Position numbers and translations under genes: made by a program. A stretch of DNA of 64,000 bases from an uncultured candidatus Porisulfidus sp. (GTDB taxonomy: Bacteria > Pseudomonadota > Gammaproteobacteria > Poriferisulfidales > Poriferisulfidaceae): contig OZ220480.1 in the NCBI GenBank assembly GCA_965116025.1, positions 193,335-257,334 of the forward strand. The letters run 5' to 3'. Below the pieces are notes generated by a model. That model saw only the letters and a list, made by a program, of their open reading frames with translations, searched no databases and was not told where the DNA came from. Shown piece after piece: positions 1,746-46,541 of the stretch. Positions within the stretch are counted from its first letter, which is position 1, and each line of letters opens with the position of its first letter.

Positions 1746-3527
1746 GTGCCATTTCTAATGCCATTGGCGCTATTGGCGGCGGGGCTTTCGGCGCTGGCGC
1801 TGCCGGCGCGGGCGGAGACGATCAACCTGTACGGGTGGCAGAACCACTCGTGGGAGTTCGTGGACATCGACGGCGGGCGCAGCTTCGACCGCATCCAGTC
1901 GAACGCCGGGAACATCGGCTTCTCGGCCAGCGTGGACACTGGCATGAGCGACATAAAGGTGAACCTGCAGTGCGAGCAGTTCACCTACTACAACCACTTC
2001 GCCGGCGGCACCGGCTGGTGCAACCGCAACTCCAAGATCGGGCTGGCGCACCCGATGGCCGGCGAGATCATGTTCGCCACCTGGCTGCTGCCGTACAACG
2101 AGGGCGTGGCCCAGTGGGTGGACCCGTTCTACGACGCCGGGGCCGACTCGCACACCAGCATCATGGGCTCGGTCGGGGCCAACACCATCTTCTACAACAC
2201 CGGCGACTTCGACCAGCAGGCGTCGGCGTCGGGGCCGGCGACCGGCTTCTCCGGGGCGGAGTTCAACTACGCCGGGGCCGGCTACGACACCGGCTTCAAC
2301 CGGCGCCAGGAGAACATCATCCAGTACTGGTCGCCGAACTGGAACGGCTTCGTGTTCCGCTTCGCCTGGACGGCCGGCAACCGCGACGAGACGAACGCGC
2401 CGACCGGCGGCGGGAAGATCGACCCGGTGATCCGCTCGAGCAGCCTGGCGTACACGAACGGCCCGCTGTGGCTGGCGGCGACCTGGCAGGACCACGAGGA
2501 CTGGACGGCGGTCTCGGTCGGGGAGATGGAGAGCTCGGACGCGGAGAGCTTCCGCCTGGCCGGGCGCTACATCATGGACCTGGGCGACGGCATGAGCGTT
2601 CAACTGTCGGCCATGTGGGAAACGCTGGAGTACGAGTTCCACGGCGTGACCACCATCGATAAGGCCATGAAGGCGTTCGGGTATGGGAATTTCATGGATT
2701 CTTACGAGTTGAGCGTCACGGATGCGGAGATAATGAAGAAGAAGACCCAAGGGCTGGCGCTCGATATCTTGACGGATGAGAAGGGCATGCTGATTCCTAT
2801 GGGGGACACGGCGCGGGGTTTATATGGGGAGCAGGTTAAAACCACTATGAGCCTGTACACCGCATACATGGGTGAGATAGACACCGTAACCTCCACCAGC
2901 TTGAACTTGGTCGCTGAACGCAGAACTGTGGTCGACTGGAACGACTATTACAAAGAGGCGCCTGATAATCCTGTTAAAGTCAGCACTACCGCCATGCGAA
3001 CCGGGTCCCAAAATGTCATGCTTTTCACGACCATGCTGAGCACGACTACGCTGAACGCGGCTAAAACGGCCGCGGAGGAGGCCAAAATGAAGGATATGGA
3101 TGATCGAACGGACGAGGACAAATCGAAAATCAAGTTCTATGACGATCTGGTCTCGATGGCGAAATCCCGAGCCCGCGACGAGAAGAGCATGGGCGGGAAC
3201 GTGAAGATCGAGCGAGACGCCTGGATGGTGTCGGGCAAGATCAAGTTCGGCGGCCCGCTGGACTTCCGCTTCTCCTACATGGACGCCGACGACCTGGAGC
3301 TGTCATGCAACTACTGCATGGGAGACTGGGACGAGACGGCGGCGGACGCCTGGAACGTCGGGGTGTTCTACACGATGCCGGCGGGAACCGAGCTGCGGCT
3401 GACGTATTCGGAGGTCAACAACGACGACAACGGGACCTACGGGCAGGGCATCTCGGGGACCGGCTTGGGAACGCCGGGGGCGGAGATCGAGATGTTCGCG
3501 CTGGGGATCGTGCACTGGTTCGACTGA
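1746..3527 (+). CDS. Porin-like outer-membrane protein with hypervariable central insert, copy A (N-block type 1, insert type alpha, tail TPGAE)
   Basis: 593 aa. The signal peptide MPLALLAAGLSALALPARA is followed by AETINLYGWQNHSWEFVDIDGG, which resembles the A(D/E)VTLYG start of general bacterial porins. It has the conserved C-terminal block SMGGNVKIERDAWMVSGKIKFGGPLDFRFSYMDADD...FALGIVHWFD. An in-frame ATG sits at 1758 inside ctaATGcc. It is one of 8 paralogs in the window. Confidence 0.8.
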   Translation: MPFLMPLALLAAGLSALALPARAETINLYGWQNHSWEFVDIDGGRSFDRIQSNAGNIGFSASVDTGMSDIKVNLQCEQFTYYNHFAGGTGWCNRNSKIGLAHPMAGEIMFATWLLPYNEGVAQWVDPFYDAGADSHTSIMGSVGANTIFYNTGDFDQQASASGPATGFSGAEFNYAGAGYDTGFNRRQENIIQYWSPNWNGFVFRFAWTAGNRDETNAPTGGGKIDPVIRSSSLAYTNGPLWLAATWQDHEDWTAVSVGEMESSDAESFRLAGRYIMDLGDGMSVQLSAMWETLEYEFHGVTTIDKAMKAFGYGNFMDSYELSVTDAEIMKKKTQGLALDILTDEKGMLIPMGDTARGLYGEQVKTTMSLYTAYMGEIDTVTSTSLNLVAERRTVVDWNDYYKEAPDNPVKVSTTAMRTGSQNVMLFTTMLSTTTLNAAKTAAEEAKMKDMDDRTDEDKSKIKFYDDLVSMAKSRARDEKSMGGNVKIERDAWMVSGKIKFGGPLDFRFSYMDADDLELSCNYCMGDWDETAADAWNVGVFYTMPAGTELRLTYSEVNNDDNGTYGQGISGTGLGTPGAEIEMFALGIVHWFD

Positions 3528-3551
3528 CCCGTTGGGTCATCCACGACAGCG

Positions 3552-3582
3552 AGCGGGCGCCTTCGGGCGCCCGCTTTCTTTG
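3552..3582 (+). terminator. Rho-independent terminator of porin copy A
   Basis: agcgggcgcc-ttcg-ggcgcccgct hairpin followed by ttctttg, about 25 nt after the stop codon. Confidence 0.7.
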
Positions 3583-4060
3583 AGGATCAGGATTCTCGAC
3601 TTGATCCGCCGCCACGAGGCAAATCGTGATGATGGCGGATCGCGAGAGCCAGATGTAACCGCTTCGGATGGTCGCGCGGGCGCTTGGAGTGATGCCACGA
3701 AAGCTGTGCGGGGCGTTCCGGCTTCAGGCTTTCATCAAAGATCGGAAACTCGATAGTTCCAGAGATCGATAGGCTGACCCCTGTTCGTCGCCACGCGGGA
3801 AGTCTGCTTGATCGAGGACGACGGGCCTCTCACCCTCTTTCCTCCCCGAGGCGCGCGCCGATCCACGCCCTCCGATTTCTCACCGCGTCTCTTATATCCA
3901 AGCGATATCAAGAATTCTCAGTCCACCGCACCACCTTGTGGTGGATCGGGTCATCCCGATCCGGTCTGCCGCGAGCGGATCGCCTTCCGGGCGCGTCGGA
4001 ACCAGGCCTCGCGCCGCCGGCGCTGGCCCGACTCTCGATCTGGTCGCGAAGCGCCGACCT

Positions 4061-4092
4061 CAAAGAAAGCGGGCGCCCGAAGGCGCCCGCTC
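4061..4092 (-). terminator. Rho-independent terminator of porin copy B (mirror image of 3552-3582)
   Basis: caaagaaa-gcgggcgcc-cgaa-ggcgcccgc on the plus strand, which is a hairpin plus U-tract on the minus strand. Confidence 0.7.
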
Positions 4093-4115
4093 GCTGTCGT
4101 GGATGACCCAACGGG

Positions 4116-5947
4116 TCAGTCGAACCAGTGCACGATCCCCAGCGCGAACATCTCGATCTCCGCCCCCGGCGTCCCCAGGCCGGTCCCCGAGATGCCCTGC
4201 CCGTAGGTCCCGTTGTCGTCGTTGTTGACTTCCGAATACGTCAGCCGCAACTCGGTTCCCGCCGGCATCGTGTAGAACACCCCGACGTTCCAGGCGTCCG
4301 CCGCCGTCTCGTCCCAGTCCCCCATGCAGTAGTTGCACGACAGCTCCAGGTCGTCGGCGTCCATATAGGAGAAGCGGAAGTCCAGCGGGCCGCCGAACTT
4401 GATCTTGCCCGACACCATCCAGGCGTCCCGCTCGATCTTCACGTTGGAGCTCATGGTTTGCTTCAGCTTGGCGTCGGCGTATTCCGTCATCTTCTTCTCG
4501 TACTCCATCACCTTCTCGTTGTGCGGCTCCAGGGCGTACTCCCTCGCCTTCGCCACGTATTCCTTGTAGAAGTCCATGTCCGTCTTGTCATCCAGATACT
4601 TCGTGGTCGATGTCTTCAACTTGTTCAGGATCGTGGTGCTCAGCTTGGTAGTCAGGGCCGCTTTGTACGCCGTGTTCAATCCCCCAGTGGTGAACCTGTA
4701 GTAGCGATCGATCGCTGGGATGTTCTGATAATTACTCCAACTTTGATTATCGAAGTATTTTTTATAGGACCCCCCGTATCACTAGGACTTAAGTCGGTGG
4801 GCCATACGGCCAGACCGGCCATGTTGGTCCTCCATTTCCCGTTCTCGTCCGTCAGCAGCTCGACCGCGAGCCCCCCGGTCATCTGCGCCTCTATCAGCGG
4901 CTTCAGCTCCGCTTCGGTGGGCATCGTCGGCTTCGTCGGCATGTCCATGTCGGCGGGGGCCATGACCTTCATGTCGTAGTAGGTTTTCTCGAAATGGTTG
5001 ATGTTGGGATCGGTACCGCCGTACCCGAACGCCTTCATGGCCTTGTTGATGTCGGTCACGCCGTGGAACTCGTACTCCAAAGTCTCCCACATGGCCGACA
5101 GTTGAACGCTCATGCCGTCGCCCAGGTCCATGATGTAGCGCCCGGCCAGGCGGAAGCTCTCCGCGTCCGAGCTCTCCATCTCCCCGACCGAGACCGCCGT
5201 CCAGTCCTCGTGGTCCTGCCAGGTCGCCGCCAGCCACAGCGGGCCGTTCGTGTACGCCAGGCTGCTCGAGCGGATCACCGGGTCGATCTTCCCGCCGCCG
5301 GTCGGCGCCATCGTCTCGTCGCGGTTCCCGGCCGTCCAGGCGAAGCGGAACACGAAGCCGTTCCAGTTCGGCGACCAGTACTGGATGATGTTCTCCTGGC
5401 GCCGGTTGAAGCCGGTGTCGTAGCCGGCCCCGGCGTAGTTGAACTCCGCCCCGGAGAAGCCGGTCGCCGGCCCCGACGCCGACGCCTGCTGGTCGAAGTC
5501 GCCGGTGTTGTAGAAGATGGTGTTGGCTCCGACCGAGCCCATGATGCTGGTGTGCGAGTCGGCTCCGGCGTCGTAGAACGGGTCCACCCACTGGGCCACG
5601 CCCTCGTTGTACGGCAGCAGCCAGGTGGCGAACATGATCTCGCCGGCCATCGGGTGCGCCAGCCCGATCTTGGAGTTGCGGTTGCACCAGCCGGTGCCGC
5701 CGGCGAAGTGGTTGTAGTAGGTGAACTGCTCGCACTGCAGGTTCACCTTTATGTCGCTCATGCCGGTGTCCACGCTGGCCGAGAAGCCGATGTTCCCGGC
5801 GTTCGACTGGATGCGGTCGAAGCTGCGCCCGCCGTCGATGTCCACGAACTCCCACGAGTGGTTCTGCCACCCGTACAGGTTGATCGTCTCCGCCCGCGCC
5901 GGCAGCGCCAGCGCCGAAAGCCCCGCCGCCAATAGCGCCAATGGCAT
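4116..5947 (-). pseudogene. Porin-like OMP copy B (N-block type 1, insert type beta), frameshifted at a C6 (coding-strand G6) tract at 4770-4775; possibly phase-variable
   Basis: An ATG start at 5947 gives MPLALLAAGLSALALPARAETINLYGW... (ORF 4676-5947). The frame is lost after ...TDLSPSDTGG. A second frame (ORF 4116-4679, open upstream to 4774) carries YGGSYKKYFDNQSWSNYQNIPAIDRYYRFTTGGLNTAYKAALTTKLSTT...GIVHWFD. One extra G in the G6 tract fuses the two frames into a full-length paralog. Confidence 0.75.
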
Positions 5948-6171
5948 TAGAAATGGTATCGTAGGGCATCAGCAAATCGAAAAACTCTCCACGGAATATC
6001 TGGCCAAAACGTCGCTTCTCCCATATATTGTTCGGTGAAATTCCGCCTCCCAAACTCTCGATTTCCGTTCCCTAGATTCCGCATTGAATTGCGGCACCAT
6101 TTCCTTTGTGGGAAAATAAGACGCTATGGGACGGGATTATCAATGTTGGCAAGGAAACCGGGAGAGGGTTG

Positions 6172-7395
6172 ATGAGAGGAACTAGAGTCCCACCGCGAAT
6201 CGAGCGATTAAAGGTGCAGAACTTCCGCGCGTTGCGCGATGTGGAGCTAAACCTTACGCCGCTCACCGTGTTACTTGGCCCAAATGGCAGTGGAAAGTCC
6301 ACGATTTTTGATGTCTTCGCCTTTTTGGCAGAGTGTTTTGAGAGCGGGCTACGTCGAGCGTGGGAAAAACGTGGCAAAGCTCGGGAACTTAGGTCGCGGG
6401 GCGGAGAGGGTCCTATATTGATTGAAATCGCATATCGCGAAAAACCGCGCACACCCTTGATCACGTATCACCTTCAAGTGGACGAGAAAAATGGCCGACC
6501 TCGCGTGGTCTGCGAATGGCTCCGATGGAAGCGGGGGCGCTACGGGCAACCGTTCAAATTTCTCGATTACGCGGACGGAGTTGGGCAGGTCATCTCGGGT
6601 GAGATGCCTGACGCGCGGGCTGAGCGGATAGAGATCCCTTTGAGTTCTCCTGATACGCTCGCGGTTAACGCGCTTGGCCAACTGGCGGAAAATTCTCGTG
6701 TCGTCGAGCTGAGAGATTTCATCATGGGATGGCATGTGTCCTACTTGTCAGCCGAGGATACGAGAGGACAACCGGAAGCGGGGCCACAGGAACGCCTGAG
6801 CAGGACAGGAGACAATCTCGCTAACGTGATTCAATATCTGTCCGAAGAACATCCAGAACTTTTGGAGTCCATTCTTGGCAGCATCAGAGAAAGGATCCCG
6901 AAAGCCCAGAGCGTGGTGGCGGACCAGATGCCGGACGGAAGGTTGTTGCTGAAAATCAAGGATGCCCCATTCGCTGACCCCGTCATGGCGCGCTTCGCGT
7001 CCGATGGCACACTTAAAGTGCTCGCCTATCTAGTCTTGTTGCGTGATCCAACCCCTCCTCCTTTTATTGGCATTGAGGAGCCGGAGAACTTCCTGCATCC
7101 ACGCCTGCTTCACGGTTTGGCGGAAGAATGCCGAACCTCCTCCGAGGCCACACAGGTCCTCGTGACCACCCATTCTCCTTTTTTCCTTGATGCGCTTCGT
7201 CCCATGGAAGTTCGGGTGTTGTGGCGCGACGAATTCGGTTACACGAGATGCGACCCCTTGGATGAGAACAAAAAAATTTTGGCGTTTATGGAAGCGGGCG
7301 CCCAGCTTGGAGATCTTTGGATGGAAGGACATTTCGGGGTTGGAGATCCGCTGACTTCGGAAGGAATGGCCATGCCGGGAAGAGGCGGGAGCTGA
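6172..7395 (+). CDS. ABC/AAA-type ATPase (AAA_21/OLD-like ATPase domain), first gene of a two-gene cassette
   Basis: Walker [12 protein letters not shown], Walker-B-like [13 protein letters not shown] and H-loop [10 protein letters not shown] are present. The start is probably the ATG at 6172, preceded by GGAGAGGG (the ORF track extends to 6106). GC is roughly 50-57% against ~62-68% in flanking core genes. The stop is 1 nt from the next gene's ATG. Confidence 0.7.
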
Positions 7396-7396
7396 C

Positions 7397-8014
7397 ATGC
7401 CCGCGTCTCATTTGGAGTTCCTCGTGGAGGAGCGTTCCATGGAAGCGTTTCTCGTTGCTTGGCTACCAAAGTTTCTGCCGGAGGGCTGCACTTTCAAGGT
7501 CTATGCGCACCAAGGCAAAAACGCGTTGTTGAGAAAAATCGAAGATCGACTCGGAGCATATAAGGCATGGATGCCAAACGAATGTCGTATCGTGGTGGTA
7601 GTGGACCGCGACCGGGATGCGTGCGATGAACTCAAGCTCAAGATGGAGCGATTCTGTGAGAAAGCGGGATTGCGGTCGAGACGGGCCGCTGATGGTTCGG
7701 ACTGGCAAGTGGTGACGCGGATAGCCATAGAAGAGCTTGAAGCATGGTATTTTGGGGACTGGCAGGCGGTGTTGGCCGCTTTTCCGGGTGTCGCGGAGAA
7801 TATCCCAGACCGCGCGGCTTACCGGGATCCAGATGCGATTCAAGGTGGAACTTGGGAGGCATTCGAGCGGATTCTCCAGAAACATGGATATTTCGCGCAA
7901 GGACTGGCAAAAGCGCAGGCCGCTAGCGAGATTGGCCGACATATCGACCCTGTTCGCAATCGGTCCCGCAGTTTTATCGTTTTTCGCGATGCCATCGTCG
8001 ATGCCACCACATGA
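7397..8014 (+). CDS. DUF4276-family protein, predicted TOPRIM-like partner of the upstream ATPase
   Basis: 205 aa beginning MPASHLEFLVEERSMEAFL, with a DxD-type acidic motif IVVVVDRDRDAC and EELEAWYFGDW. This matches my recollection of the DUF4276 family, which characteristically follows AAA_21 ATPases. Translationally coupled. Confidence 0.55.
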   Translation: MPASHLEFLVEERSMEAFLVAWLPKFLPEGCTFKVYAHQGKNALLRKIEDRLGAYKAWMPNECRIVVVVDRDRDACDELKLKMERFCEKAGLRSRRAADGSDWQVVTRIAIEELEAWYFGDWQAVLAAFPGVAENIPDRAAYRDPDAIQGGTWEAFERILQKHGYFAQGLAKAQAASEIGRHIDPVRNRSRSFIVFRDAIVDATT

Positions 8015-8123: not shown

Positions 8124-9308
8124 ATGATTTTCTGGGCCCGCCGAGCCCGAAGCCGGACTTTCAGGAGACGTTACTTGGCCAAACGCGCGTTGCTCGCTCT
8201 CGAAAACGGCGCGTTGTTTTTCGGAGATTCCATCGGGGCGAACGTCACCGCCATCGGGGAGGTCGTCTTCAACACCTCCATCACGGGCTACCAGGAAATC
8301 TTGACTGACCCGTCGTATTGCCGCCAACTGATCACGCTGACGCATCCGCATATCGGGAACGTCGGGGCGAATGACGAAGACAGCGAATCCGGCGCTCCGG
8401 CGCGCGCCGCTGGCCTGATCGCGCGCGATGTCCCTGCGCGCGCGAGCAACTGGCGCGCCAAGCGGTCTTTAGGGGATTTTCTTGACGAGCACGGACTGCC
8501 TGGGATCGTGGGCATCGACACGCGCCGCCTCACGCGAATCCTGCGCGACCAAGGAGCCCAGTCGGGTTGCCTCACGACCGATGTCTCCGACCCGGACCAA
8601 GCGGTCGATCAGGCCCGCGCGTTCCCGGGGCTAGCGGGAATGGATTTGGCGCGAGAAGTCTCCACGAAGGAGTCGTACGAGTGGGACGAGGGACCTTGGG
8701 GGGCAATGCCAGACGAGCTGCCGCCCGCGCGATATCGAGTTGTGGCTTACGACTACGGGATCAAGCGAAACATTCTCCGCCTCCTGCGCGCGCGCGGATG
8801 CGCGGTCACGGTCGTGCCGGCCAAGACCCCGGCATCCGAGGTGCTGAGCCGGGATCCAGATGGAGTTTTTCTATCCAACGGACCTGGAGATCCAGATCCA
8901 TGCACGTACGCCCGGGACACGATCCGAGAATTGATCCAGACCCGGACTCCGATGTTCGGCATCTGCCTTGGTTGCCAGTTGCTCGGCTTGGCCAACGGAG
9001 CGCGCACGGTCAAGATGAAGACCGGGCATCACGGAGCCAACCACCCAGTTCTCGAGATGGACACGGGCCGGGTTCTGATCAGTAGTCAGAACCATGGTTT
9101 CGCGATTGAGGAAGAGTCTCTTCCAGAATGCCTGCGCTTGACCCACCGCTCGCTTTTCGACGGCACCGTGCAAGGCATCCGGCATGTCGAGGCCCCAGCG
9201 TTCGCTTTCCAAGGACACCCGGAAGCGAGCCCCGGGCCACGCGACTTGGCTGGCTTGTTCGATCAGTTCATCGACCTGATGCGGCATCGCCCCGGACGAC
9301 TTGGTTAA
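8124..9308 (+). CDS. carA: Carbamoyl-phosphate synthase small subunit; true start probably downstream of 8124 (TTG near 8175, [17 protein letters not shown])
   Basis: Glutamine amidotransferase region with GICLGCQLL and HGANHPV motifs. The N-terminal domain [32 protein letters not shown] is collinear with CarA. Confidence 0.85.
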
Positions 9309-9312
9309 CGCC

Positions 9313-12300
9313 ATGGCGAAGCGGACCGATATCGAGAGCGTCCTCGTGATCGGGGCAGGACCAATCGTCATCGGCCAAGCCTGCGAATTCGATTACTCCG
9401 GGGCGCAAGCTTGCAAGGCGCTACGCGAGGAAGGCTACCGCGTCATCTTGGTCAACTCCAACCCCGCCACCATCATGACCGACCCGCAGATGGCGCAATC
9501 CATTTATATCGAGCCAGTCGAGTGGCGAACGCTGTCGCGCGTCATTGAGCGTGAGAAGCCGGACGCGTTGTTACCAACCATGGGCGGACAGACCGCGTTG
9601 AACTGCACGCTGGACCTGCATCGAGAGGGAACGTTGCAGGCTCATGGCGTGGAGTTGATTGGCGCCTCCCTTGAAGCCATCGCGATGGCCGAGGACCGGC
9701 AACTGTTCCGGGAGGCTATGGAGGAGATCGGGCTGGAGCAGGCGCGGTCCCGGGTGGTGCGCGGCGTGGAGGAGGCGCTGGGCTTTCAGCCCCACATCGG
9801 CTATCCCGTCATCGCGCGGCCCTCGTTCACCTTGGGCGGAACGGGAGGGGGCGTGGCCAGGAGCGAGGAGGAGCTCAGGCGCGTCGTCGCGCACGGGTTG
9901 GATCTGTCGCCCACCCGCGAGGTCCTTTTGGAGGAATCTCTTCTGGGCTGGAAGGAATTCGAGATGGAGGTGGTCCGCGACGCCAAGGACAACTGCATCA
10001 TCGTCTGCTCGATCGAGAATCTGGATCCGATGGGGGTGCACACCGGAGACTCGATCACGGTCGCGCCAGCGCAGACCTTGACGGACAAGGAATACCAGCG
10101 GATGCGCGACGCCTCCATCGCGGTATTGCGCAAGATCGGCGTGGACACTGGTGGTTCCAACGTGCAGTTCGCGACGCATCCAGGAACTGGGCGATTGCTC
10201 ATCATCGAGATGAACCCGCGCGTCTCGCGCTCCTCGGCGCTGGCCTCCAAAGCGACCGGATTTCCTATCGCCAAGGTGGCGGCCCGCCTGGCCGTGGGCT
10301 ACACCCTGGACGAGTTGCGCAACGACATCACGGACGGCGCGACTCCGTGCTCGTTCGAGCCGACTCTGGATTACATCGTGACCAAGATCCCGCGCTTCAC
10401 GTTCGAGAAGTTTCCGCAGGCGGAACCGCTCCTGACGACCCAGATGAAATCGGTCGGGGAGGCGATGGCGATCGGGCGCACCTTCCAGGAATCCTTGCAG
10501 AAGGCGTTGCGTAGCTTGGAGACTGGGCAATGCGGACTGGATCCGCTTGGCCCGATGGATCGGGAAGAGCGGAAAGATCGGCTAGTCCACCCGGATCCGC
10601 ATCGGCTGAGACATGTCGCCGACGCCTTGCGCGAGGGCTGGAGCCTGGAGGAGATCCACGAACTGACCGGCATCGATCCGTGGTTCATCGCGGAAATCGA
10701 GGATCTTGTGGCGCGTGAGCGAGCCCTGTCGGGAAGGGACTTGGACGACTTGTCGAGGGAAGAGTTGCTCGTCCTGAAGCGCGCCGGGTTTTCGGACCGG
10801 CGCCTAGGGCAATTGCTTCATGTGGATGAGGAAGACGTGCGCGCGCGGCGTCACGCGCAGGGCCTGCGGCCAGTATACAAGCGGGTCGACACTTGCGCGG
10901 CGGAGTTTCCGACTTCCACGGCCTATCTCTACTCCACCTACGAGGAGGAATGCGAGGCCCGACCGACGAACGCGCGGAAAGTGGTGGTGCTCGGCGGCGG
11001 CCCAAACCGAATCGGACAGGGCATCGAATTCGACTACTGTTGCGTGCATGCCGCGCAGAGCGCGCGCGAGCTGGGCTTCGAGACCATCATGGTCAACTGC
11101 AATCCAGAGACGGTCTCCACCGATTACGACACTTCCGATCGTCTGTATTTCGAGCCTCTCGCGCTGGAGGACGTGCTGGAGATCCTGCATGTCGAGCGTC
11201 CGTACGGAGTGATCGTCCAGTTCGGGGGGCAGACTCCCCTGAAACTCGCTCAAGGATTGGCGCGGGCGGGGATCCCGATCCTGGGCACGTCCCCGGACGC
11301 GATCGACGCTTCCGAGGATCGAGAGCGCTTTACCGGAGTGCTTGATCGCCTAGGCCTGCGTCAGCCGCCGGGGGGAACGGCGCGCGACCGCGAGGGAGCG
11401 CTGAGGTTGGCCCGCGAACTAGGCTATCCTTTGGTCGTGCGGCCTTCCTACGTGCTGGGTGGGCGGGCGATGGAGATCGTGTTCGACGAAGTGGAACTCG
11501 AGCGCTACATCAAGGACGCGGTCCAAGTGTCCGACCAGACCCCGGTGTTGCTCGATCGCTATTTGCAGGACGCGGTGGAAGTCGATGTCGACGTGGTGCG
11601 CGATGGGGAGGAAACGCTGATCGGAGGGATCATGCAACACATCGAGCAGGCCGGGATCCACTCCGGGGATTCGGCCTGCTCCCTGCCCGTCTACTCGATC
11701 GAGGAACCGGTCCTGGATATCCTGCGCGACCAAGCCACGGCGCTGGCGCGCGCGCTGGAGGTGGTGGGCCTGATGAATATTCAGTTCGCGGTGCGGGGAG
11801 ACTCGATCTACGTGATCGAGGCCAACCCCCGCGCCTCGCGTACCGTGCCGTTCGTTTCCAAAGTGACCGGTCGCTCGCTGGCGCGGATCGCGACCGCCTG
11901 CATGCTGGGCCGGTCCTTGCGCGAGCAAGACTGCCGCGAGGAGGCGCGGCTGGAATACTTCGCGGTTAAGGAAGCGGTGTTTCCCTTTCTCAAATTCTCG
12001 GGGGTCGACCCGATCTTGGGCCCGGAGATGAAGTCGACCGGCGAGGTGATGGGGGTTGGCGAGCGCTTCGAGGAGGCGTTCGCCAAATCGCAACGCGCGG
12101 CCGGGGTGCGCATCCCAACTGGCGGGCGAGCCCTGATCAGCGTGCGAGACCAGGATAAGCCTGGATGCTCTCGGTTGGCGCGCGAACTGCTCGCGGCTGG
12201 CTTCGAACTGGTGGCGACCCACGGAACGGCGGAACACTTGCGCCAGGAAGGCCTGGACTGCGCTGGCATCAACAAGGTGGCGCAAGGCTCGCCTCATGTC

Positions 12301-12552
12301 GTTGACAGGATTCGGGGCGGCGAGATCGACTTGATCATAAACACGACCCAAGACAAGCTGGCGATCCGCGATTCGCTAGCCATTCGCCGGGAAGCGCTGC
12401 AACGTCAAGTTTGCTACACGACGACCTTGACCGGCGCCAGCGCGTTGGTCCGCGTGTTAAAATCCGAGGTGATCGAGGATGTGTATCAATTGCAAGCCTT
12501 GCACGAGAAGCGCGTGCGCCGGATGCCGGCGCGAGATGATGTTTCCGAATAG
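9313..12552 (+). CDS. carB: Carbamoyl-phosphate synthase large subunit
   Basis: ~1080 aa beginning [37 protein letters not shown], with duplicated ATP-grasp halves and a C-terminal MGS-like domain. ATG at 9313; the ORF track's 9301 start is a short N-extension. Confidence 0.9.
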
Positions 12553-12564
12553 ACCGGGAGATTG

Positions 12565-13041
12565 ATGGGCATGGTGCCAATGACCGCGCGCGGGGCCTCC
12601 CTCTTGCGCGAAGAGCTTGAGCGGCTCAAGCGAGTGGAGCGCCCGGCCGTCATCCAAGCGATCGCTGAGGCGCGCGCCCATGGGGATTTGCGCGAGAACT
12701 ACGAGTACAAGGCGGCGCGGGATCAGCAAGGATTCCTGGAAGGACGCATCAAGGAAATCGAGGCCAAGCTATCTCGCGCGCAGGTCATAGACATCTCCGA
12801 ACTGCAACTCAACGGCAAGGTGGTGTTCGGCACCACGGTGGAATTGGTCGACTTGGAATCTGGAGAGCGGGTGCGCTACCAGATTGTTGGCGAGGATGAG
12901 GCGGATATCGAGAAAGACCGGCTCTCGGTGCATACGCCGATCGCTCGGGCGTTGATCGGACGCCCGGAGGGAGAAGAGATAACGGTGGAAACGCCGGGCG
13001 GGAAAAGGGTTTTCGAAATTGTCGCGGTGCGCCGCGAATAA
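12565..13041 (+). CDS. greA: Transcription elongation factor GreA
   Basis: [22 protein letters not shown]...[26 protein letters not shown] is collinear with GreA. GGGAG lies upstream of the ATG. Confidence 0.85.
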
Positions 13042-22729: not shown

Positions 22730-23382
22730 TCCGAGCCGGGAATCTCGAGCCCGGCATCCTGAAGCAACTCGATCAGGCGGATCATCGGCAACCCAATCAG
22801 AGCGGTCGGGTCGTCGCCTATGATGTGATCCGTGAGGCTGGCTCCCAGTCCCTCGGATCTGAAACTCGCGGTGCAGTTGTATGGCCTCTCGCTTCGCAGG
22901 TAACGCTTGATTACGTCCTCGCTCAATTCCTTGTAACGTACCGTGTGGCGGGACTCGGAGTAGCGGCATACGCCGGCGCTGGTGTCCAGAAGGCATAGAC
23001 CGGTCAGGAAAGCCACCTCCTGCCCGCTGAGCTGGCGTAGTTGCTCCACGGCCGCGCCATGCGTTCCCGGCTTGCCCAGCAACTTCCCGCTTAGCTCCGC
23101 GCACTGGTCGCTACTGATTATCAGGGAATCCGGGTGTCGGACCCCAACCTCCGCGGCCTTCTCATGGGCGAGCCGTCGCACGTAGTCCGAAACCCTCTCG
23201 CCTAGCCGCGGGGTCTCGTCGATATCGGGCGCGTCCACCGTGAAGTCTAGGCGCAAGCGTTCAAGAAGTTCTCGACGATAAGGAGAGCTGCTACCGAGCA
23301 CGAGAGGACGCGTCGCCGCCATTTCGATCATCATGGCGAGAGACCGACAGGATTTTCGTTGGACAGCGGAGCTCGGTTCCAT
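22726..23382 (-). CDS. maf: Maf-like nucleoside-triphosphate pyrophosphatase; true start probably the MMIEM/MAATRP Met near 23330
   Basis: LVLGSSSPYRRELLERLRLDFTVDAPDIDE...LLGKPGTHGAAVEQL is collinear with the Maf/YhdE family. Confidence 0.75.
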   Translation of the reverse strand: MEPSSAVQRKSCRSLAMMIEMAATRPLVLGSSSPYRRELLERLRLDFTVDAPDIDETPRLGERVSDYVRRLAHEKAAEVGVRHPDSLIISSDQCAELSGKLLGKPGTHGAAVEQLRQLSGQEVAFLTGLCLLDTSAGVCRYSESRHTVRYKELSEDVIKRYLRSERPYNCTASFRSEGLGASLTDHIIGDDPTALIGLPMIRLIELLQDAGLEIPGSD

Positions 23383-24968
23383 CGCGCGTCTCGCTTCCGG
23401 TCTGGATTCGCGATTACGTGCAAGTAGGAAGTGGCGCGGCTAAACCCGACGTAAGCGAATCGGTCTGGACTCTCTCCAGAAGGTCGGTCGAGCACCACGA
23501 CCACCGCGAGGGATTCCAGTCCCTTAAAACGAGCGATCGTCTCGGTCACGATGCCATCGGCATCATACTGGCAAAAAACAGTGTCGGATACATCCATATC
23601 GAGGAGGCGATTCCGGAGAGACGGCGTTTCGCAAAGCACGACAATATCCTGCCGTTCAAAGTTCTCGGACAATAGGCGGTCAACGACTCGGCGTACGATC
23701 TTTTCTGGTTTCTGGGAAGGCTGGAGGTCCGTCCAGCGGGGTTTCGGACCGGATGCCCCGGAAGCGAGCGTGGTCGCCCCAGTGGTAGCCGCGACTCGCT
23801 CGGCGATCGGTTGCGCGTTTCGGCAGTTCATGGACAAATCGATCATCACGAAACCTTCGGGCGTGTCCCAGTCCCTTTCCCACAGTTTTTGGTCCTCATC
23901 CGCCAAAATCAGGAACGGAGTGTCCGAACCCCTTTCGCAAAGCGTCTGGAGCGCCTCGAGCCAAAGGCTGGAAAAGTCTTGGCCCTCATCAACGATGATC
24001 GCGTCGAATCGCGCGCCCGCCCGCTCCGCCGCGTCAACGAGAATATAAGGCACTTCCTTCTCCCACCATTCCGCTTGAGGCGCGTCGGGAACCTCGACTC
24101 CGGCCTGGCGCGCCGTGGACATGCATAAGGCATGAAACGTGTGCGCCGCAACCCCCTCCAAGGAGGGGTCGTCCCCGAGTTTTTGACCAAGCAGTTTGTT
24201 GTAGCAGGTCAGCAGCACTCGATGACCCGACGCGTGAAGTTGCCTCGCTTTCTCGCAAGCGAGAATCGTTTTTCCTGTGCCAGCCCCACCGAACACGACG
24301 ACTCGCCGATTCCGGCGCATCATGTCAAGAACCCGAATCTGCTCCTCGGTCAAATTCACAAGGCGGACCTTGGCATCGTGCGCCTCATCAGACAGGGTTC
24401 GCCGAACCTGGACGGTAGGCGCCAAGGCGTTAGCGATATCTTGGACTTGACGGAAGGATAAATCCGCGGAAAGCCGCCAATGAAGAACTACATCGCGAAT
24501 GGCGGAAGGCGCGTCCGTCAAATGGCCCGCGTCCAACGCGATCGCTTTCGGGGCATCTGGACCCAACAACGGCAATTCCCGCAAGTCAGGGAACCAAACG
24601 GCATGGCACGTCGGAACGCGACGCTCGAATCGCTCCGCTATGAACCGACCCAGAGCGGCCTTGGACGCTACCGCCTGCTCAAACGGGTTTTTGATGTCGT
24701 GGACTTCCTCGTTTCGGTCCCGGGACTTCCAACGTCCGGCTTCGACGTGGACTCCTCCGCCCTTCACCTCAAGCACGACGATCCCATGCGACCGATGAAT
24801 CAGGACAAAATCCGCTTCTCCGTCGCCGGTCCGTCGCCCGCGCGGGCCCTGCCAAGCGACGGAGTGAAGCACCGTCCAATCATCGGATAGCGTAGACAGC
24901 GCGTCGTAGACCTTCCGTTCCGAATCGGCATCGACTCCGACTGTGGGGCAGGCGAATGTGATGGCCAT
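23331..24968 (-). CDS. NERD-domain protein fused to UvrD/AAA_30-like DNA helicase
   Basis: N-terminal NERD-like segment (DALSTLSDDWTVLHSVAWQ...EADFVLIHRSHGIVVLEVKGG). Helicase motif I VVVFGGAGTGKT, motif II DAIIVDEGQDF, and C-terminal YVGFSRATSYLHVIAN. ATG at 24968 (MAITFACP). GC is visibly lower than the core. Confidence 0.65.
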   Translation of the reverse strand: MAITFACPTVGVDADSERKVYDALSTLSDDWTVLHSVAWQGPRGRRTGDGEADFVLIHRSHGIVVLEVKGGGVHVEAGRWKSRDRNEEVHDIKNPFEQAVASKAALGRFIAERFERRVPTCHAVWFPDLRELPLLGPDAPKAIALDAGHLTDAPSAIRDVVLHWRLSADLSFRQVQDIANALAPTVQVRRTLSDEAHDAKVRLVNLTEEQIRVLDMMRRNRRVVVFGGAGTGKTILACEKARQLHASGHRVLLTCYNKLLGQKLGDDPSLEGVAAHTFHALCMSTARQAGVEVPDAPQAEWWEKEVPYILVDAAERAGARFDAIIVDEGQDFSSLWLEALQTLCERGSDTPFLILADEDQKLWERDWDTPEGFVMIDLSMNCRNAQPIAERVAATTGATTLASGASGPKPRWTDLQPSQKPEKIVRRVVDRLLSENFERQDIVVLCETPSLRNRLLDMDVSDTVFCQYDADGIVTETIARFKGLESLAVVVVLDRPSGESPDRFAYVGFSRATSYLHVIANPDRKRDARWNRAPLSNENPVGLSP

Positions 24969-25438
24969 GACCGTGGCGTTTCCGTTCGACTCCGGCTCAC
25001 CCGAAGTCAATCATGAATTCGATCAAGAGCGCGCGCCAAGGGCCGCGGTCAGATTCCGGAAAACTTGAGGAATCAATAGTTCGCCAAGAGGTCTTGAACG
25101 TCGACTTGAAGTCAAGCAAGCCCGGCGTGCCCGGAAAAAGAAAGATATCGCGTCTTGAGCCATGCTCGAGATGGAAATCCCTCCTTCTTGCGGCATTTCA
25201 CTCGGGGTGGTTTCTTTCGGGATAGGAAAAGGCAAAGTGCCAACATGTTACTCAATAGATCGCTGGCGTTTCTCCGGCTCTACGGCGTTGGCCGCGAAAG
25301 GACCAGATCATGTGAAAGAGGGATCAAAGCTGGGTGGGAAATACAAACGAACGCATAGCCGAGTCTCTAACTCGTGATGCGTGGTCGATTATAAATCACG
25401 CGCGATCATCATGAGCGCGGACGCGCTCGATATCCAAA

Positions 25439-27268
25439 TTGGCCCGAGCACGGGATTCCGTAGCAATCTCATTTCTAATCCCATTGACGCTGCTGGCGGC
25501 GTCGCTGTCGGCGCTGTCGCTGTCGGCGCGGGCGGAGACGATCAACCTGTACGGGTGGCAGAACCACTCGTGGGAGTTCGTGGACATCGACGGCGGGCGC
25601 AGCTTCGACCGCATTCAGTCGAACGCCGGGAACATCGGCTTCTCGGCCAGCGTGGACACCGGCATGAGCGACATAAAGGTGAACCTGCAGTGCGAGCAGT
25701 TCACCTACTACAACCACTTCGCCGGCGGCACCGGCTGGTGCAACCGCAACTCCAAGATCGGGCTGGCGCATCCGATGGCCGGCGAGATCATGTTCGCCAC
25801 CTGGCTGCTGCCGTACAACGAGGGCGTGGCCCAATGGGTGGACCCGTTCTACGACGCCGGGGCCGACTCGCACACCAGCATCATGGGCTCGGTCGGGGCC
25901 AACACCATCTTCTACAACACCGGCGACTTCGACCAGCAGGCGTCGGCGTCCAATCCTGGCACTGGCTTCTCCGGCAACGAGTTCAACTACGCCGGGGGCG
26001 GCTACGACACCGGCTTCAACCGGCGCCAGGAGAACATCATCCAGTACTGGTCGCCGAACTGGAACGGCTTCGTGTTCCGCTTCGCCTGGACGGCCGGCAA
26101 TCGCGACGAGACCCACGCGCTCAAGGACGCCAAAGGTAATTACGCGGCCGGCCCCAAGATCGACCCGGTGATCCGCTCGAGCAGCCTGGCGTACACGAAC
26201 GGCCCGCTGTGGCTGGCGGCGACCTGGCAGGACCACGAGGACTGGACGGCGGTCTCGGTCGGGGAGATGGAGAGCTCGGACGCGGAGAGCTTCCGTCTGG
26301 CCGGGCGCTACATCATGGACCTGGGCGACGGCATGAGCGTTCAATTGTCCGCCATGTGGGAGACCTTGGAGTACGAGTTCCACGGCGTGACCACCATCGA
26401 TAAGGCCATGAAGGCGTTCGGGTATGGGAATTTCATGGATTCTTACGAGTTGAGCGTCACGGATGCGGAGATAATGAAGAAGAAGACCCAAGGGCTGGCG
26501 CTCGATATCTTGACGGATGAGAAGGGCATGCTGATTCCTATGGGGGACACGGCGCGGGGTTTATATGGGGAGCAGGTTAAAACCACTATGAGCCTGTACA
26601 CCGCATACATGGGTGAGATAGACACCGTAACCTCCACCAGCTTGAACTTGGTCGCTGAACGCAGAACTGTGGTCGACTGGAACGACTATTACAAAGAGGC
26701 GCCTGATAATCCTGTTAAAGTCAGCACTACCGCCATGCGAACCGGGTCCCAAAATGTCATGCTTTTCACGACCATGCTGAGCACGACTACGCTGAACGCG
26801 GCCAAAACGGCCGCGGAGGAGGCCAAAAAGAAGGATATGGATGATCGAACGGGCGAGGACAAATCGAAAATCAAGTTCTATGACGACCTGGTCTCGATGG
26901 CGAAATCCCGAGCCCGCGACGAGAAGAGCATGGGCGGGAACGTGAAGATCGAGCGAGACGCCTGGATGGTGTCGGGCAAGATCAAGTTCGGCGGCCCGCT
27001 GGACTTCCGCTTCTCCTACATGGACGCCGACGACCTGGAACTGTCGTGCAACTACTGCATGGGAGACTGGGACGAGACGGCGGCGGACGCCTGGAACGTC
27101 GGGGTGTTCTACACGATGCCGGCGGGGACCGAGCTGCGGCTGACGTATTCGGAAGTCAACAACGACGACAACGGGACCTACGGGCAGGGCATCTCGGGGA
27201 CTGGCTTGGGAGTGGCTGGCGCGGAGATCGAGATGTTCGCGCTGGGGATCGTGCACTGGTTCGACTGA
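25439..27268 (+). CDS. Porin-like OMP copy C (N-block type 2, insert type alpha, tail VAGAE)
   Basis: 609 aa. The insert is near-identical to copy A but the N-block differs (SNPGTGFSGNEFNYAGGGY...HALKDAKGNYAAGPKIDP). There is no ATG at the conserved ctaatcc position; the first possible start is the TTG at 25439. Confidence 0.75.
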   Translation: MARARDSVAISFLIPLTLLAASLSALSLSARAETINLYGWQNHSWEFVDIDGGRSFDRIQSNAGNIGFSASVDTGMSDIKVNLQCEQFTYYNHFAGGTGWCNRNSKIGLAHPMAGEIMFATWLLPYNEGVAQWVDPFYDAGADSHTSIMGSVGANTIFYNTGDFDQQASASNPGTGFSGNEFNYAGGGYDTGFNRRQENIIQYWSPNWNGFVFRFAWTAGNRDETHALKDAKGNYAAGPKIDPVIRSSSLAYTNGPLWLAATWQDHEDWTAVSVGEMESSDAESFRLAGRYIMDLGDGMSVQLSAMWETLEYEFHGVTTIDKAMKAFGYGNFMDSYELSVTDAEIMKKKTQGLALDILTDEKGMLIPMGDTARGLYGEQVKTTMSLYTAYMGEIDTVTSTSLNLVAERRTVVDWNDYYKEAPDNPVKVSTTAMRTGSQNVMLFTTMLSTTTLNAAKTAAEEAKKKDMDDRTGEDKSKIKFYDDLVSMAKSRARDEKSMGGNVKIERDAWMVSGKIKFGGPLDFRFSYMDADDLELSCNYCMGDWDETAADAWNVGVFYTMPAGTELRLTYSEVNNDDNGTYGQGISGTGLGVAGAEIEMFALGIVHWFD

Positions 27269-27289
27269 CCCTTCGTCATCCACGAAGCG

Positions 27290-27320
27290 AGCGGGCGCCC
27301 TCGGGCGCCCGCTTTCTTGT
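27290..27320 (+). terminator. Rho-independent terminator of copy C
   Basis: agcgggcgcc-ctcg-ggcgcccgct followed by ttcttgt. Confidence 0.7.
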
Positions 27321-27842
27321 GGGCTCAGGAATTCCTGACAGGTCCGCCACCAGGCGGGACCAAGACGATGGCCAGCCTCGAGACCGAGACGGACCCGCTT
27401 CGGACTACCCCCCGAATGCTTGGAGTGGCTCCACGGAAGCCGTGAGGGAAACTCCGGTTTCAGGCTTTCATCAAAGACTGTGCACCCGATATTCTTGAGA
27501 AAGGAGTTCCGGGGACCGATGGACTTGTGAAAGCCTTGGTTCACCCACCGCGCGAGCGAGACGCGTCGCGCGAAGTCCACTCGATCAAGGGCGATGGCCC
27601 TCTCGCTCTTTTCCTCCCCGAGGCGCGCGCTGACCCGAACCCTCCGGTTTCCCGCCGCCTCGCCTGGATTCCAGCTATACCGAGAATTCTCGGTCCTCCA
27701 TCACTTTGTCGTGGATTGGGTCATCCCGATCTCGCCCGCCGCGAGCGAATGGCCTTCCGAGCGTGTGGCGGGCGCGGCGAAGCCAGGTCTCGCGCCGCCG
27801 GCGCTGGCCCGACTCCCGATCTGGCCGCGAAACGCCGGATCC

Positions 27843-27873
27843 AAAGAAAGCGGGCGCCCGAAGGCGCCCGCTC
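27843..27873 (-). terminator. Rho-independent terminator of copy D
   Basis: aaagaaagcgggcgcccgaaggcgcccgctc on the plus strand, a mirror of the copy-C terminator. Confidence 0.7.
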
Positions 27874-27894
27874 GCTGTCGTGAATGACGAAGGG

Positions 27895-29802
27895 TCAGTC
27901 GAACCAGTGCACGATCCCCAGCGCGAACATCTCGATCTCCGCCCCCGGCGTCCCCAGGCCAGTCCCCGAGATGCCCTGCCCGTAGGTCCCGTTGTCGTCG
28001 TTGTTGACTTCCGAATACGTCAGCCGCAGCTCGGTCCCCGCCGGCATCGTGTAGAACACCCCGACGTTCCAGGCGTCCGCCGCCGTCTCGTCCCAGTCTC
28101 CCATGCAGTAGTTGCATGACAGCTCCAGGTCGTCGGCGTCCATGTAGGAGAAGCGGAAGTCCAGCGGGCCGCCGAACTTGATCTTGCCCGACACCATCCA
28201 GGCGTCCCGCTCGATCTTCACGCTCGACCCCATGGTCTGCTCCAGCTTGGCGGCAGCATATTTTTCCTTGCCCTCCTCGTATGCCGTCATGGCATCGTCG
28301 TAGGCTTTCTTAGCCTCGTTGTACTTCTCGTCATATGGCCTCATGGCCTCCTCCTTGACCTTCGCCACGTATTCCTTGTACCAGTCAGCGCCTGTTTTGT
28401 CGCCCGAATATTTCGTGGTCGATGTCTTTAAAGTATTCAGTGTCGTGGAGCTCAGTTTGGTGGTAACGAGCGTTCGCAGCGCCTGATCCGTTCCTATAGT
28501 GTTAAGTCTATAGTATTGAACCAGCTTTCTCCGATGTACGAGGCCAGAACCCCATTGCGCTAGCTCTGTGTGGAAGCTGCCTTGGAGAGTACTTAATTCC
28601 TTGGGCACCGCGATATTACTGAGGCTTGATGTCGCGCTCTTGCTATCCACTGGAATGGTCCGCCAGTACCCGCTCTCGTCAAGCAACATCTCCATCGCAA
28701 GCCCTTGGGTCATCTGCGCGTCGATCTCGGCTTGGGTGGCCATCCCTCGTTCAGGCTTCGTCGTGGTCGGCTTCGTCGGCATGTCCATGTCGGCGGGGGC
28801 CATGACCTTCATGTCGTAGTAGGTCTTCTCGAAATGGTTGATGTTGGGATCGGTGCCGCCGTACCCGAACGCCTTCATGGCCTTGTTAATGTCGGTCACG
28901 CCGTGGAACTCGTACTCCAAAGTCTCCCACATGGCCGACAATTGAACGCTCATGCCGTCGCCCAGGTCCATGATGTAGCGCCCGGCCAGACGGAAGCTCT
29001 CCGCGTCCGAGCTCTCCATCTCCCCGACCGAGACCGCCGTCCAGTCCTCGTGGTCCTGCCAGGTCGCCGCCAGCCACAGCGGGCCGTTCGTGTACGCCAG
29101 GCTGCTCGAGCGGATCACCGGGTCGATCTTGGGGCCGGCCGCGTACTTGCCCTCGGCGTTCTTGAGCGCGTGGGTCTCGTCGCGATTGCCGGCCGTCCAG
29201 GCGAAGCGGAACACGAAGCCGTTCCAGTTCGGCGACCAGTACTGGATGATGTTCTCCTGGCGCCGGTTGAAGCCGGTGTCGTAGCCGCCCCCGGCGTAGT
29301 TGAACTCGTTGCCGGAGAAGCCAGTGCCAGGATTGGACGCCGACGCCTGCTGGTCGAAGTCGCCGGTGTTGTAGAAGATGGTGTTGGCCCCGACCGAGCC
29401 CATGATGCTGGTGTGCGAGTCGGCCCCGGCGTCGTAGAACGGGTCCACCCACTGGGCCACGCCCTCGTTGTACGGCAGCAGCCAGGTGGCGAACATGATC
29501 TCGCCGGCCATCGGGTGCGCCAGCCCGATCTTGGAGTTGCGGTTGCACCAGCCGGTGCCGCCGGCGAAGTGGTTGTAGTAGGTGAACTGCTCGCACTGCA
29601 GGTTCACCTTTATGTCGCTCATGCCGGTGTCCACGCTGGCCGAGAAGCCGATGTTCCCGGCGTTCGACTGGATGCGGTCGAAGCTGCGCCCGCCGTCGAT
29701 GTCCACGAACTCCCACGAGTGGTTCTGCCACCCGTACAGGTTGATCGTCTCCGCCCGCGCCGACAGCGACAGCGCCGACAGCGACGCCGCCAGCAGCGTC
29801 AA
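27895..29802 (-). CDS. Porin-like OMP copy D (N-block type 2, insert type beta-long, tail TPGAE); ORF is open upstream to 29973 with no in-frame ATG
   Basis: The conserved block starts ...EEIPFLIPLTLLAASLSALSLSARAETINLYGW. The insert shares TDINKAMKAFGYGGTDPNINHFEKTYYDMKVMAPADMDMPTKPT with copy B and then diverges into a longer cassette. The coordinate 29802 corresponds to the TTG at the LTLL position used for E, G and H. Confidence 0.7.
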   Translation of the reverse strand: MTLLAASLSALSLSARAETINLYGWQNHSWEFVDIDGGRSFDRIQSNAGNIGFSASVDTGMSDIKVNLQCEQFTYYNHFAGGTGWCNRNSKIGLAHPMAGEIMFATWLLPYNEGVAQWVDPFYDAGADSHTSIMGSVGANTIFYNTGDFDQQASASNPGTGFSGNEFNYAGGGYDTGFNRRQENIIQYWSPNWNGFVFRFAWTAGNRDETHALKNAEGKYAAGPKIDPVIRSSSLAYTNGPLWLAATWQDHEDWTAVSVGEMESSDAESFRLAGRYIMDLGDGMSVQLSAMWETLEYEFHGVTDINKAMKAFGYGGTDPNINHFEKTYYDMKVMAPADMDMPTKPTTTKPERGMATQAEIDAQMTQGLAMEMLLDESGYWRTIPVDSKSATSSLSNIAVPKELSTLQGSFHTELAQWGSGLVHRRKLVQYYRLNTIGTDQALRTLVTTKLSSTTLNTLKTSTTKYSGDKTGADWYKEYVAKVKEEAMRPYDEKYNEAKKAYDDAMTAYEEGKEKYAAAKLEQTMGSSVKIERDAWMVSGKIKFGGPLDFRFSYMDADDLELSCNYCMGDWDETAADAWNVGVFYTMPAGTELRLTYSEVNNDDNGTYGQGISGTGLGTPGAEIEMFALGIVHWFD

Positions 29803-45948: not shown

Positions 45949-45972
45949 CCGGTTGGGTCACCCACGATAGCG

Positions 45973-46003
45973 AGCGGGCGCCTTCGGGCGCCCGCTTTCT
46001 TTG
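45973..46003 (+). terminator. Rho-independent terminator of copy E
   Basis: agcgggcgcc-ttcg-ggcgcccgct followed by ttctttg. Confidence 0.7.
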
Positions 46004-46519: not shown

Positions 46520-46541
46520 TCGTCGTGAATGATCCAACGGA

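Follow-up and report, generated by a model that had tools for sequence, protein, structure and literature searches.

Non-coding spacers between convergent porin genes in a candidatus Porisulfidus genome: predicted terminators around a mosaic interior probably reshuffled by gene conversion

The stretch of DNA analysed here (the window) spans 64,000 nucleotides, positions 193,335 to 257,334 of contig OZ220480.1, and belongs to a metagenome-assembled genome of an uncultured candidatus Porisulfidus sp. It holds eight genes for porins of about 600 residues with a Porin_4 domain (PF13609), arranged in four convergent pairs, here called units u1 to u4. Our subject is the spacer at the centre of each unit, namely the gap of 588-626 bp bounded by the stop codons of the two convergent genes. 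An earlier reading of this DNA from its letters alone (the sequence-only reading) had placed all four spacers correctly. Units and spacers lie as follows, alpha and beta being two spacer haplotypes described below:

Unit u1: porin genes u1A, 1746-3527 (+), and u1B, 4116-5947 (-)
Spacer 1: 3528-4115 (no strand), 588 bp, alpha haplotype throughout, between u1A (+) and the frameshifted u1B (-)
Unit u2: porin genes u2A, 25439-27268 (+), and u2B, 27895 to about 29840 (-)
Spacer 2: 27269-27894 (no strand), 626 bp, beta haplotype throughout, between u2A (+) and u2B (-)
Unit u3: porin genes u3A, 44062-45948 (+), and u3B, 46542-48449 (-)
Spacer 3: 45949-46541 (no strand), 593 bp, recombinant, between u3A (+) and u3B (-)
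Unit u4: porin genes u4A, 51591-53486 (+), and u4B, 54085-55998 (-)
Spacer 4: 53487-54084 (no strand), 598 bp, recombinant, between u4A (+) and u4B (-)

The porin proteins are essentially identical over their first ~310 and last ~115 residues, and carry between these an insert of ~230 residues that cannot be aligned between most copies. Homology between the units covers the whole pair, its limits coinciding exactly with the 5' ends of the porins, and the DNA outside is unrelated; as this homology includes the spacer, the spacer sits between recombining arms. Arm identity is 94-100% when units are compared and 98-99% inside the pairs u1 and u2 (I6, I4). The spacers themselves align over their full length with a mean column identity of 86% (including about 28 nt of gene on each side) and a pairwise identity of 72-88% (blastn, E from 0 to 1e-97), and blastn found no further spacer copy within the window. 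Their GC content is 0.61-0.65, against 0.41-0.52 in the other intergenic DNA adjoining the units. GATC occurs at about twice its expectation in spacers 1 and 3 (11-12 sites against 5-7); we dropped it as a conserved spacer property, spacer 2 having only 4 sites.

Every spacer end follows the same plan: the stop codon, about 25 nt, an 11-bp GC stem with a TTCG loop, and a T-rich tail. The hairpins concerned are:

3552-3582 (+): terminator-like hairpin of u1A, AGCGGGCGCC-TTCG-GGCGCCCGCT followed by TTCTTTG, 25 nt past the stop codon
Starts at about 27290, 45973 and 53511 (+): plus-strand equivalents of the u1A hairpin
4061-4091 (-): mirror-image terminator-like hairpin of u1B
Cores at 27850-27871, 46496-46517 and 54038-54059 (-): minus-strand equivalents of the u1B hairpin

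The pattern GCGGGCGCC-NNNN-GGCGCCCGC occurs exactly eight times in the window, always at one of these porin 3' ends, where chance would give 0.07 occurrences, and the end segments (62-65 nt) fold at -31 to -37 kcal/mol, with z-scores of -3.4 to -4.7. The stem-loop is thus what an intrinsic terminator calls for: GC-rich, stable, and placed 25 nt after the stop codon at eight of eight porin 3' ends. Its tail is less canonical. The stem is followed by TTTCTTTG, in which six of seven letters are T, although the first T may form a pair in the stem. The C in TTTCTTT interrupts the T-run, and a strict terminator scan (at least 5 T in 8) called no site. On these features, the hairpins are predicted Rho-independent terminators that face inward, one per porin gene.

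The sequence-only reading had also described the two ends of each spacer as mirror images, which is borne out both by the hairpins and by inverted repeat I23 (3181-3606 and 4037-4462; 426 nt, 94%). On both sides, the inverted repeat of the gene 3' ends continues into the spacer, by 79 nt in spacer 1 and by about 50-58 nt in spacers 2 to 4. That reading had gone further and seen in each pair with its spacer an imperfect palindrome with arms of about 1 kb. The inverted repeat stands, the arm length does not: the arms that abut the spacer measure only about 0.43 kb, of which 345 nt belong to the gene 3' end and 50-80 nt to the spacer. Arms of 0.94-1.0 kb do exist, being formed by the 5' parts of the genes (for example 1749-2686 and 5019-5956, 99%), and a non-homologous variable cassette of about 0.5-0.75 kb separates these outer arms from the inner ones.

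Between the terminators, the spacers are mosaics, as the sequence-only reading had proposed and as can now be quantified. We scored site patterns on an alignment of the four spacers (A1), whose columns 81-170 and 397-500 correspond to window positions 3580-3669 and 3859-3962. The features of the interior, in the coordinates of spacer 1, are:

3580-3669 (no strand): left module, alpha (spacers 1 and 3) versus beta (spacers 2 and 4) at 33 sites
3683-3741 (no strand): best-conserved interior island, CTTGGAGTG...GGCTTCAGGCTTTCATCAAAGA
3859-3962 (no strand): second partition module, spacers 1 and 4 versus 2 and 3 at 17 sites
3943-3961 (no strand): interior hairpin or palindrome, GGATCGGG-TCAT-CCCGATC, present in four of four spacers with one G-U change in spacer 2

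In columns 81-170, then, 33 sites group spacers 1 and 3 against 2 and 4; from column 170 to 345 spacer 2 alone deviates (64 columns, including its insertions); in columns 397-500, 17 sites group spacers 1 and 4 against 2 and 3; and to the right of column 500 spacers 2 and 4 go together again. The two conflicting partitions occupy separate blocks (Fisher p = 1.2e-12), and because the left module and the module at 3859-3962 are mutually incompatible, recombination has occurred between copies. Clustered, mutually incompatible site partitions of this kind are what gene conversion would leave behind. The simplest description assumes two old haplotypes with about 67-74% identity, alpha in spacer 1 and beta in spacer 2, and treats spacers 3 and 4 as recombinants of them: spacer 3 is alpha in its left and middle parts and beta-like at columns 397-500, and spacer 4 is beta on the left, alpha in the middle and beta on the right. 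Spacer 2 has private insertions of 14, 6 and 17 nt. Apart from the terminators, blastn among the spacers found no inverted segments within the mosaic. The strings that had been quoted as shared are present, with one correction: three spacers read GGCTTCAGG at a place where spacer 2 reads GGTTTCAGG. The 8-bp hairpin GATCCGCC...GGCGGATC reported in spacers 1 and 3 is there as well, at 3603-3641 in the alpha left module, and in the beta left module its left arm is reused in another hairpin, GGTCCGCC-ACCA-GGCGGGACC. One caveat applies to the mosaic and to the frameshift of u1B alike: errors of assembly or polishing over 4.4-kb repeats could have added to either.

The spacer interiors are non-coding, as had been surmised, and hold no recently decayed gene. 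No open reading frame (ORF) is conserved over the four spacers, and in spacer 2 every frame is lost to indels of 14, 6, 17 and 11 nt. Codon periodicity is missing too: the phase-specific range of GC content is 0.03-0.13 in the interiors versus 0.50 in the porin arms, in a genome where GC at third codon positions (GC3) is 0.59-0.80 in ordinary genes, 0.94-0.97 in the porin arms and 0.68-0.77 in the variable cassettes of the porins. None of the six frames of either haplotype had a Pfam match at E up to 10, and selected frames had none in NCBIfam.

The behaviour of the spacers in related genomes speaks against a conserved functional element. The porin family is confined to Candidatus Porisulfidus and its allies among the sponge-associated sulfur-oxidising Gammaproteobacteria, whose genomes measure 1.6-1.9 Mb; there is no record of a strain-level relative, and the most similar porins reach about 90% identity in the arms. 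The architecture of the unit is shared, with convergent porin pairs, spacers of 350-905 bp and mirror-image hairpins in at least five other genomes. The interior is not: across 42 related loci (L001-L035 and L089-L095) no similarity to it was found, and only the hairpin region of about 30 nt matches. The terminator hairpin is the sole blastn match of the spacer in L089-L095, and blastn at word size 7 against the 35 Porisulfidus loci returned no match, hairpin included. Plasmid and phage collections gave no spacer match, and a metagenome scan for TTCAGGCTTTCATCAARGA gave 53 matches, all of them confined to the queried motif and attributable to chance. The hairpin GGATCGGG-TCAT-CCCGATC occurs nowhere else in the window, nor in the 91 loci or the viral contigs scanned.

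The closest contig, L089, is syntenic with the window: the block of IS110 and orf296 lies between two of its porin pairs, and next to one pair is the ArgG-RNase T block. Identity between orthologous proteins of the two is 64-85%, and at the nucleotide level the porin arms are 85-89% and the neighbouring syntenic blocks 71-80% identical. The alignments end at the terminator, and nothing in L089 can be aligned to the interior of the window's spacers. Paralogs within the window are therefore closer to each other (72-88% in the spacers, 94-100% in the arms) than to their orthologs in L089 (85-89% in the arms, interior unalignable). The sequence-only reading had taken the similarity of some 500 bp of non-coding DNA at four loci as a sign of function, and had named a decay of that similarity in relatives, like that of neutral flanking DNA, as an outcome that would speak against it; save for the terminator hairpin, the similarity is gone, at the syntenic pairs of L089 included.

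The same contig shows what can occupy this position instead. Its spacers at the syntenic pairs (2755-3291 and 9810-10714) contain a 97-residue gene of the HTH_3/HTH_31 (Xre) type in one case, and in the other a 97-residue MazE/AbrB gene followed by a truncated PIN-like ORF that is visibly decaying. A Phd antitoxin gene lies just outside one porin pair of L089, and by their annotation toxin-antitoxin-like genes seem to gather around these pairs. The interior of the window's spacers may likewise have begun as a small gene, a toxin-antitoxin or Xre-type cassette that eroded after being copied to the four pairs, and a spacer GC content nearer to that of coding DNA than to that of local intergenic DNA would agree with this. 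We consider such an origin improbable. A Phd/YefM relic was tried as a candidate because the stretch at and around the best-conserved island (3659-3751) weakly resembles the C-terminal end of the Phd protein of L089 (tblastn E 0.17 against the window; 11 of 31 residues identical by BLASTP), and was rejected: a profile hidden Markov model built from 116 homologues reached at best 1.6 bits (E 0.35) over 24 spacer frames, on the wrong strand. The HTH and MazE genes of the L089 spacers fared no better as queries: up to E 10, tblastn matched them to no part of the window's spacers. The lack of any Pfam or NCBIfam signal or residual codon periodicity also argues against a decayed gene. In any case, this idea concerns where the interior came from and is compatible with the explanation that we favour.

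That explanation, to which we assign a probability of about 0.7, is that the spacer consists of two intrinsic terminators and neutral stuffer, and forms the loop of a large inverted repeat that gene conversion has homogenised and reshuffled. The spacer would be the unique, non-coding centre of an inverted repeat built from two convergent porin paralogs, and its sole sequence-specific functional parts would be the two inward-facing terminators. The interior of about 480 bp would be lineage-specific stuffer under little or no sequence constraint, owing its similarity at the four loci to common descent and concerted evolution. Recombination starting in the arms would copy or exchange DNA between them, and for that reason the four interiors would be alike, mosaic, and replaced wholesale between species. 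Of the three functions that the sequence-only reading had offered for the spacers, hitch-hiking with gene-conversion tracts is thus the one favoured, both by the mosaic and by the balance of similarity within and between genomes. The GC-rich spacers, together with a GC3 that is high in the arms relative to the cassettes, would also fit GC-biased gene conversion.

A spacer of a few hundred bases is kept across the genus and its sequence is not, which suggests that its length and its two terminators are selected. We thus infer that the selected property is the presence and length of the spacer rather than its sequence. It would separate the convergent transcription units and allow the cell to tolerate an inverted repeat of this length; bacteria do not stably maintain long palindromes that lack a spacer at their centre.

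Several observations weigh against a neutral interior, and most of them speak for a rival explanation, a species-specific small RNA (sRNA) or cis-acting RNA or DNA element encoded there. The candidates would be the island CTTGGAGTG...TTCAGGCTTTCATCAA and the hairpin GGATCGGG-TCAT-CCCGATC, which might act on porin mRNAs or bind a regulator. Identity between alpha and beta is clumped, more so than expected for haplotypes that are uniformly 67-74% identical: the longest identical run is 27 nt against an expected ~14-18 (p 0.003-0.03), and there are four runs of at least 14 nt (27, 21, 19 and 14) where 0.6 are expected. The 8-bp hairpin GGATCGGG-TCAT-CCCGATC is retained in four of four copies, with only its one G-U change, and a left-module hairpin is found in both haplotypes with the same left arm and different right arms. 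Such clumping could mean local constraint; short conversion patches would explain it, and the retention of the hairpin, equally well. The plus strand of spacer 2 folds better than its shuffles (z -3.7), and in the plus-strand consensus eight pairs are changed on both sides, against 4.8 +/- 1.2 after shuffling, a count biased upward, since the four sequences in which the pairs were counted had also supplied the structure and represent only two haplotypes. Finally, the relatives compared are all distant, with about 85-90% amino acid identity in the porin arms, so that the comparison leaves room for a young, species-specific RNA.

Even so, an RNA or cis-acting element in the interior strikes us as quite improbable, and the conserved, possibly structured core of the sequence-only reading found no support. 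The Rfam search that it had suggested (Rfam 15, gathering score) reported only a tRNA-Ser at 33061-33145 in the whole window and nothing in the spacers, and a permissive scan of 3400-4250 gave chance matches far below the gathering score (best E 0.041). No sigma-70-like promoter was found in or near spacers 1 and 2 on either strand. Folding is inconsistent between alleles and strands, with z-scores on the two strands of -1.6 and 0.0 for spacer 1 and of -3.7 and -1.2 for spacer 2, and the RNAalifold covariation terms are only -0.9 and -1.9 kcal/mol with many broken pairs, again on four sequences that represent two haplotypes. To this must be added that nothing similar turned up in the related genomes and collections searched, and that the orthologous spacers of L089 differ in content.

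One may also ask whether the spacer is a specific recombination or pairing site, at which a dedicated recombinase would exchange or invert cassettes. Breakpoints do lie inside the spacers, short palindromes are present, an IS110-family transposase gene stands between units 3 and 4 (49182-50357), and two adjacent pairs in OZ251520.1 share a spacer interior in inverted orientation (L020, 7288-7718 versus 11795-12143; 85% over 213 nt, minus strand). However, the 30 neighbouring ORFs scanned include no serine or tyrosine recombinase and no resolvase/invertase or integrase domain, the only transposases among them being the IS110 enzyme and a DDE transposase (59720-60601), neither of which adjoins all units. 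The spacer has no similarity to the surroundings of the IS110 gene, none of the relatives with the same pair architecture has the candidate motifs, and arms of 0.4-1 kb at 94-99% identity would suffice for RecA-type recombination. We therefore regard a dedicated site as very improbable, and for want of such a recombinase in the ORFs scanned the units do not qualify as a site-specific invertible element of the Hin/Gin-switch or shufflon type. An origin of the spacer from a mobile element was likewise rejected, given the lack of other copies in the window and of similarity to the IS110 flanks.

The inverted interior in OZ251520.1 is what would be expected if recombination between inverted arms flips the centre. 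Two spacers of OY764335.1 are 99% identical to each other. In sample ERZ25068685, two co-existing contigs (L094, ctg6449_9x, at 9x coverage, and L095, ctg6867_24x, at 24x) are 99.8% identical over about 8 kb around porin P0010 and differ by an indel of about 190 bp inside the spacer, an instability that accords with the explanation favoured above; their flanks past the porin repeats are different, with CbbQ and penicillin amidase on one and rimP-nusA-infB on the other. Either the sample mixes two strains, or one population carries a structural variant at its porin repeats. Together with the changed gene order in L089 (below), the inverted spacer and this contig pair suggest that the porin pairs may be recombination-based units of porin variation, with the spacer as no more than their loop.

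On this tentative reading, the spacer would be the loop of a switch that acts on the surface loops of the porins by homologous recombination. We hold this for possible and no more than that. Across the genus, porin paralogs combine near-identical N-terminal (~0.95 kb) and C-terminal (~0.35 kb) arms with a hypervariable insert of ~230 residues between them. An inversion between the N-terminal arms would flip cassette, spacer and cassette together and place the other cassette behind the start codon, and gene conversion from other pairs would add variants. All that would be asked of the spacer is a loop length of at least ~350 bp and a terminator on either side; its sequence would be free, and its orientation would record past flips.

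The 5' ends of the genes bear on this possibility. Homology between paralogs starts at codon 3-4 of the signal peptide (PFLI). When the start of u3B at 48449 is compared with the corresponding positions in the other copies (1749, 5956, 25469, 29817, 44047, 51576 and 56013), only u3B among the eight has AGGAG-N8-ATG AAA AAA, that is, a ribosome-binding site, an ATG and Lys-Lys. Genes u3A, u4A and u1B lack a start codon and are preceded, at a distance of four codons, by an in-frame TGA, and u4B has ATT CAA AAA where u3B has ATG AAA AAA. The division into copies that begin MKKPFLIA... and start-less copies is found across the genus, often with one of each in a convergent pair. Judged from the DNA, the pattern suggests one expression copy accompanied by start-less, possibly silent, full-length cassettes.

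Some further observations on the porin genes may be noted here. A perfect TTGACA and a perfect TATAAT lie 14 nt apart at 48530-48560 on the minus strand, about 110 nt upstream of the u3B start; this spacing is too short for the standard scan, and they are a candidate porin promoter only. The variable cassettes lie at 2690-3180, 26440-26920, 28240-28860, 45010-45600, 46900-47460, 52540-53140 and 54470-55030. Those of u1A and u2A are near-identical (98-100% per 100-nt window, 2712-3114 versus 26453-26855), which points to a recent copy event. Gene u1B is split by a frameshift in its variable cassette (4676-4790) into ORFs at 4676-5947 and 4116-4679, and is either a pseudogene or the product of an assembly error. 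A literature search on the genus name returned no paper whose title or abstract concerns these porins.

The units have defence-like and mobile genes as neighbours. At 6106-8014, 23331-25010, 31474-33033, 49182-50357 and 59720-60601 are an AAA_15/AAA_21 ATPase with a DUF4276 partner, a NERD-helicase, a fragment of a TraD/TrwB-like coupling protein, the IS110 transposase and the DDE transposase, all interleaved with core genes such as carAB, greA, rimP-nusA-infB-truB, dnaKJ and recN. Gene order has changed around the repeats as well. In a comparison of window positions 8124-13041 and 56081-58648 with L089 and L090, the ArgG-RNase T-glutaredoxin block adjoins greA-carBA in the two relatives, and in the window the blocks are about 43 kb apart with porin pairs at the junctions. 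Porin repeats may thus mediate larger chromosomal rearrangements.

Taken by themselves, the spacers matter little, beyond illustrating that some 500 bp of apparently conserved non-coding DNA at four loci can arise by concerted evolution without a function. Their two haplotypes and the recombinants between them do, however, provide a clean internal marker of the recombination that shapes the porin family. The porin system could matter more, with its eight near-identical genes, hypervariable inserts, palindromic pairs and defence-like neighbours in a sponge-symbiont genome of about 2 Mb. It looks like surface-receptor diversification, directed against phage or serving the dealings with the host.

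Parallels exist among known systems. One is with Rho-independent terminators set face to face between convergent genes: the spacer likewise has GC-rich, inward-facing stem-loops, one per gene and about 25 nt past its stop codon, here with an 11-bp stem and a TTCG tetraloop, followed by a T-rich but interrupted run. In a classical bidirectional terminator the two are shared or overlapping, whereas here two separate ones stand some 480 bp from each other. Being part of the repeated gene arms, they are mirror copies of near-exact likeness.

As for the possible switch, the closest parallel is sapA of Campylobacter fetus, where RecA-dependent inversion takes place among full-length surface-protein cassettes that have a conserved 5' region and are served by one promoter. 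Common to both are full-length paralogs with near-identical 5' regions and variable remainders, in opposite orientations, with apparently only some copies having a proper start. The sapA genes are nevertheless divergent around an invertible promoter segment and encode an S-layer protein; the genes described here are convergent, encode a porin, and would have promoter and start outside the invertible segment, with the spacer only the loop of the module.

The process that we favour for the spacers themselves, concerted evolution by gene conversion, is familiar from the bacterial tuf and rrn copies and from the silent and expressed pilS/pilE cassettes of Neisseria, in which adjoining non-coding DNA hitch-hikes. 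The likeness extends to within-genome identity far above that between genomes, a mosaic of incompatible partitions, homogenised arms flanking a less homogenised segment, and GC enrichment in the recombining parts. Unlike in those cases, the hitch-hiking segment here is not a flank but the central loop of an inverted repeat, and it is replaced wholesale between species while the architecture around it is kept.

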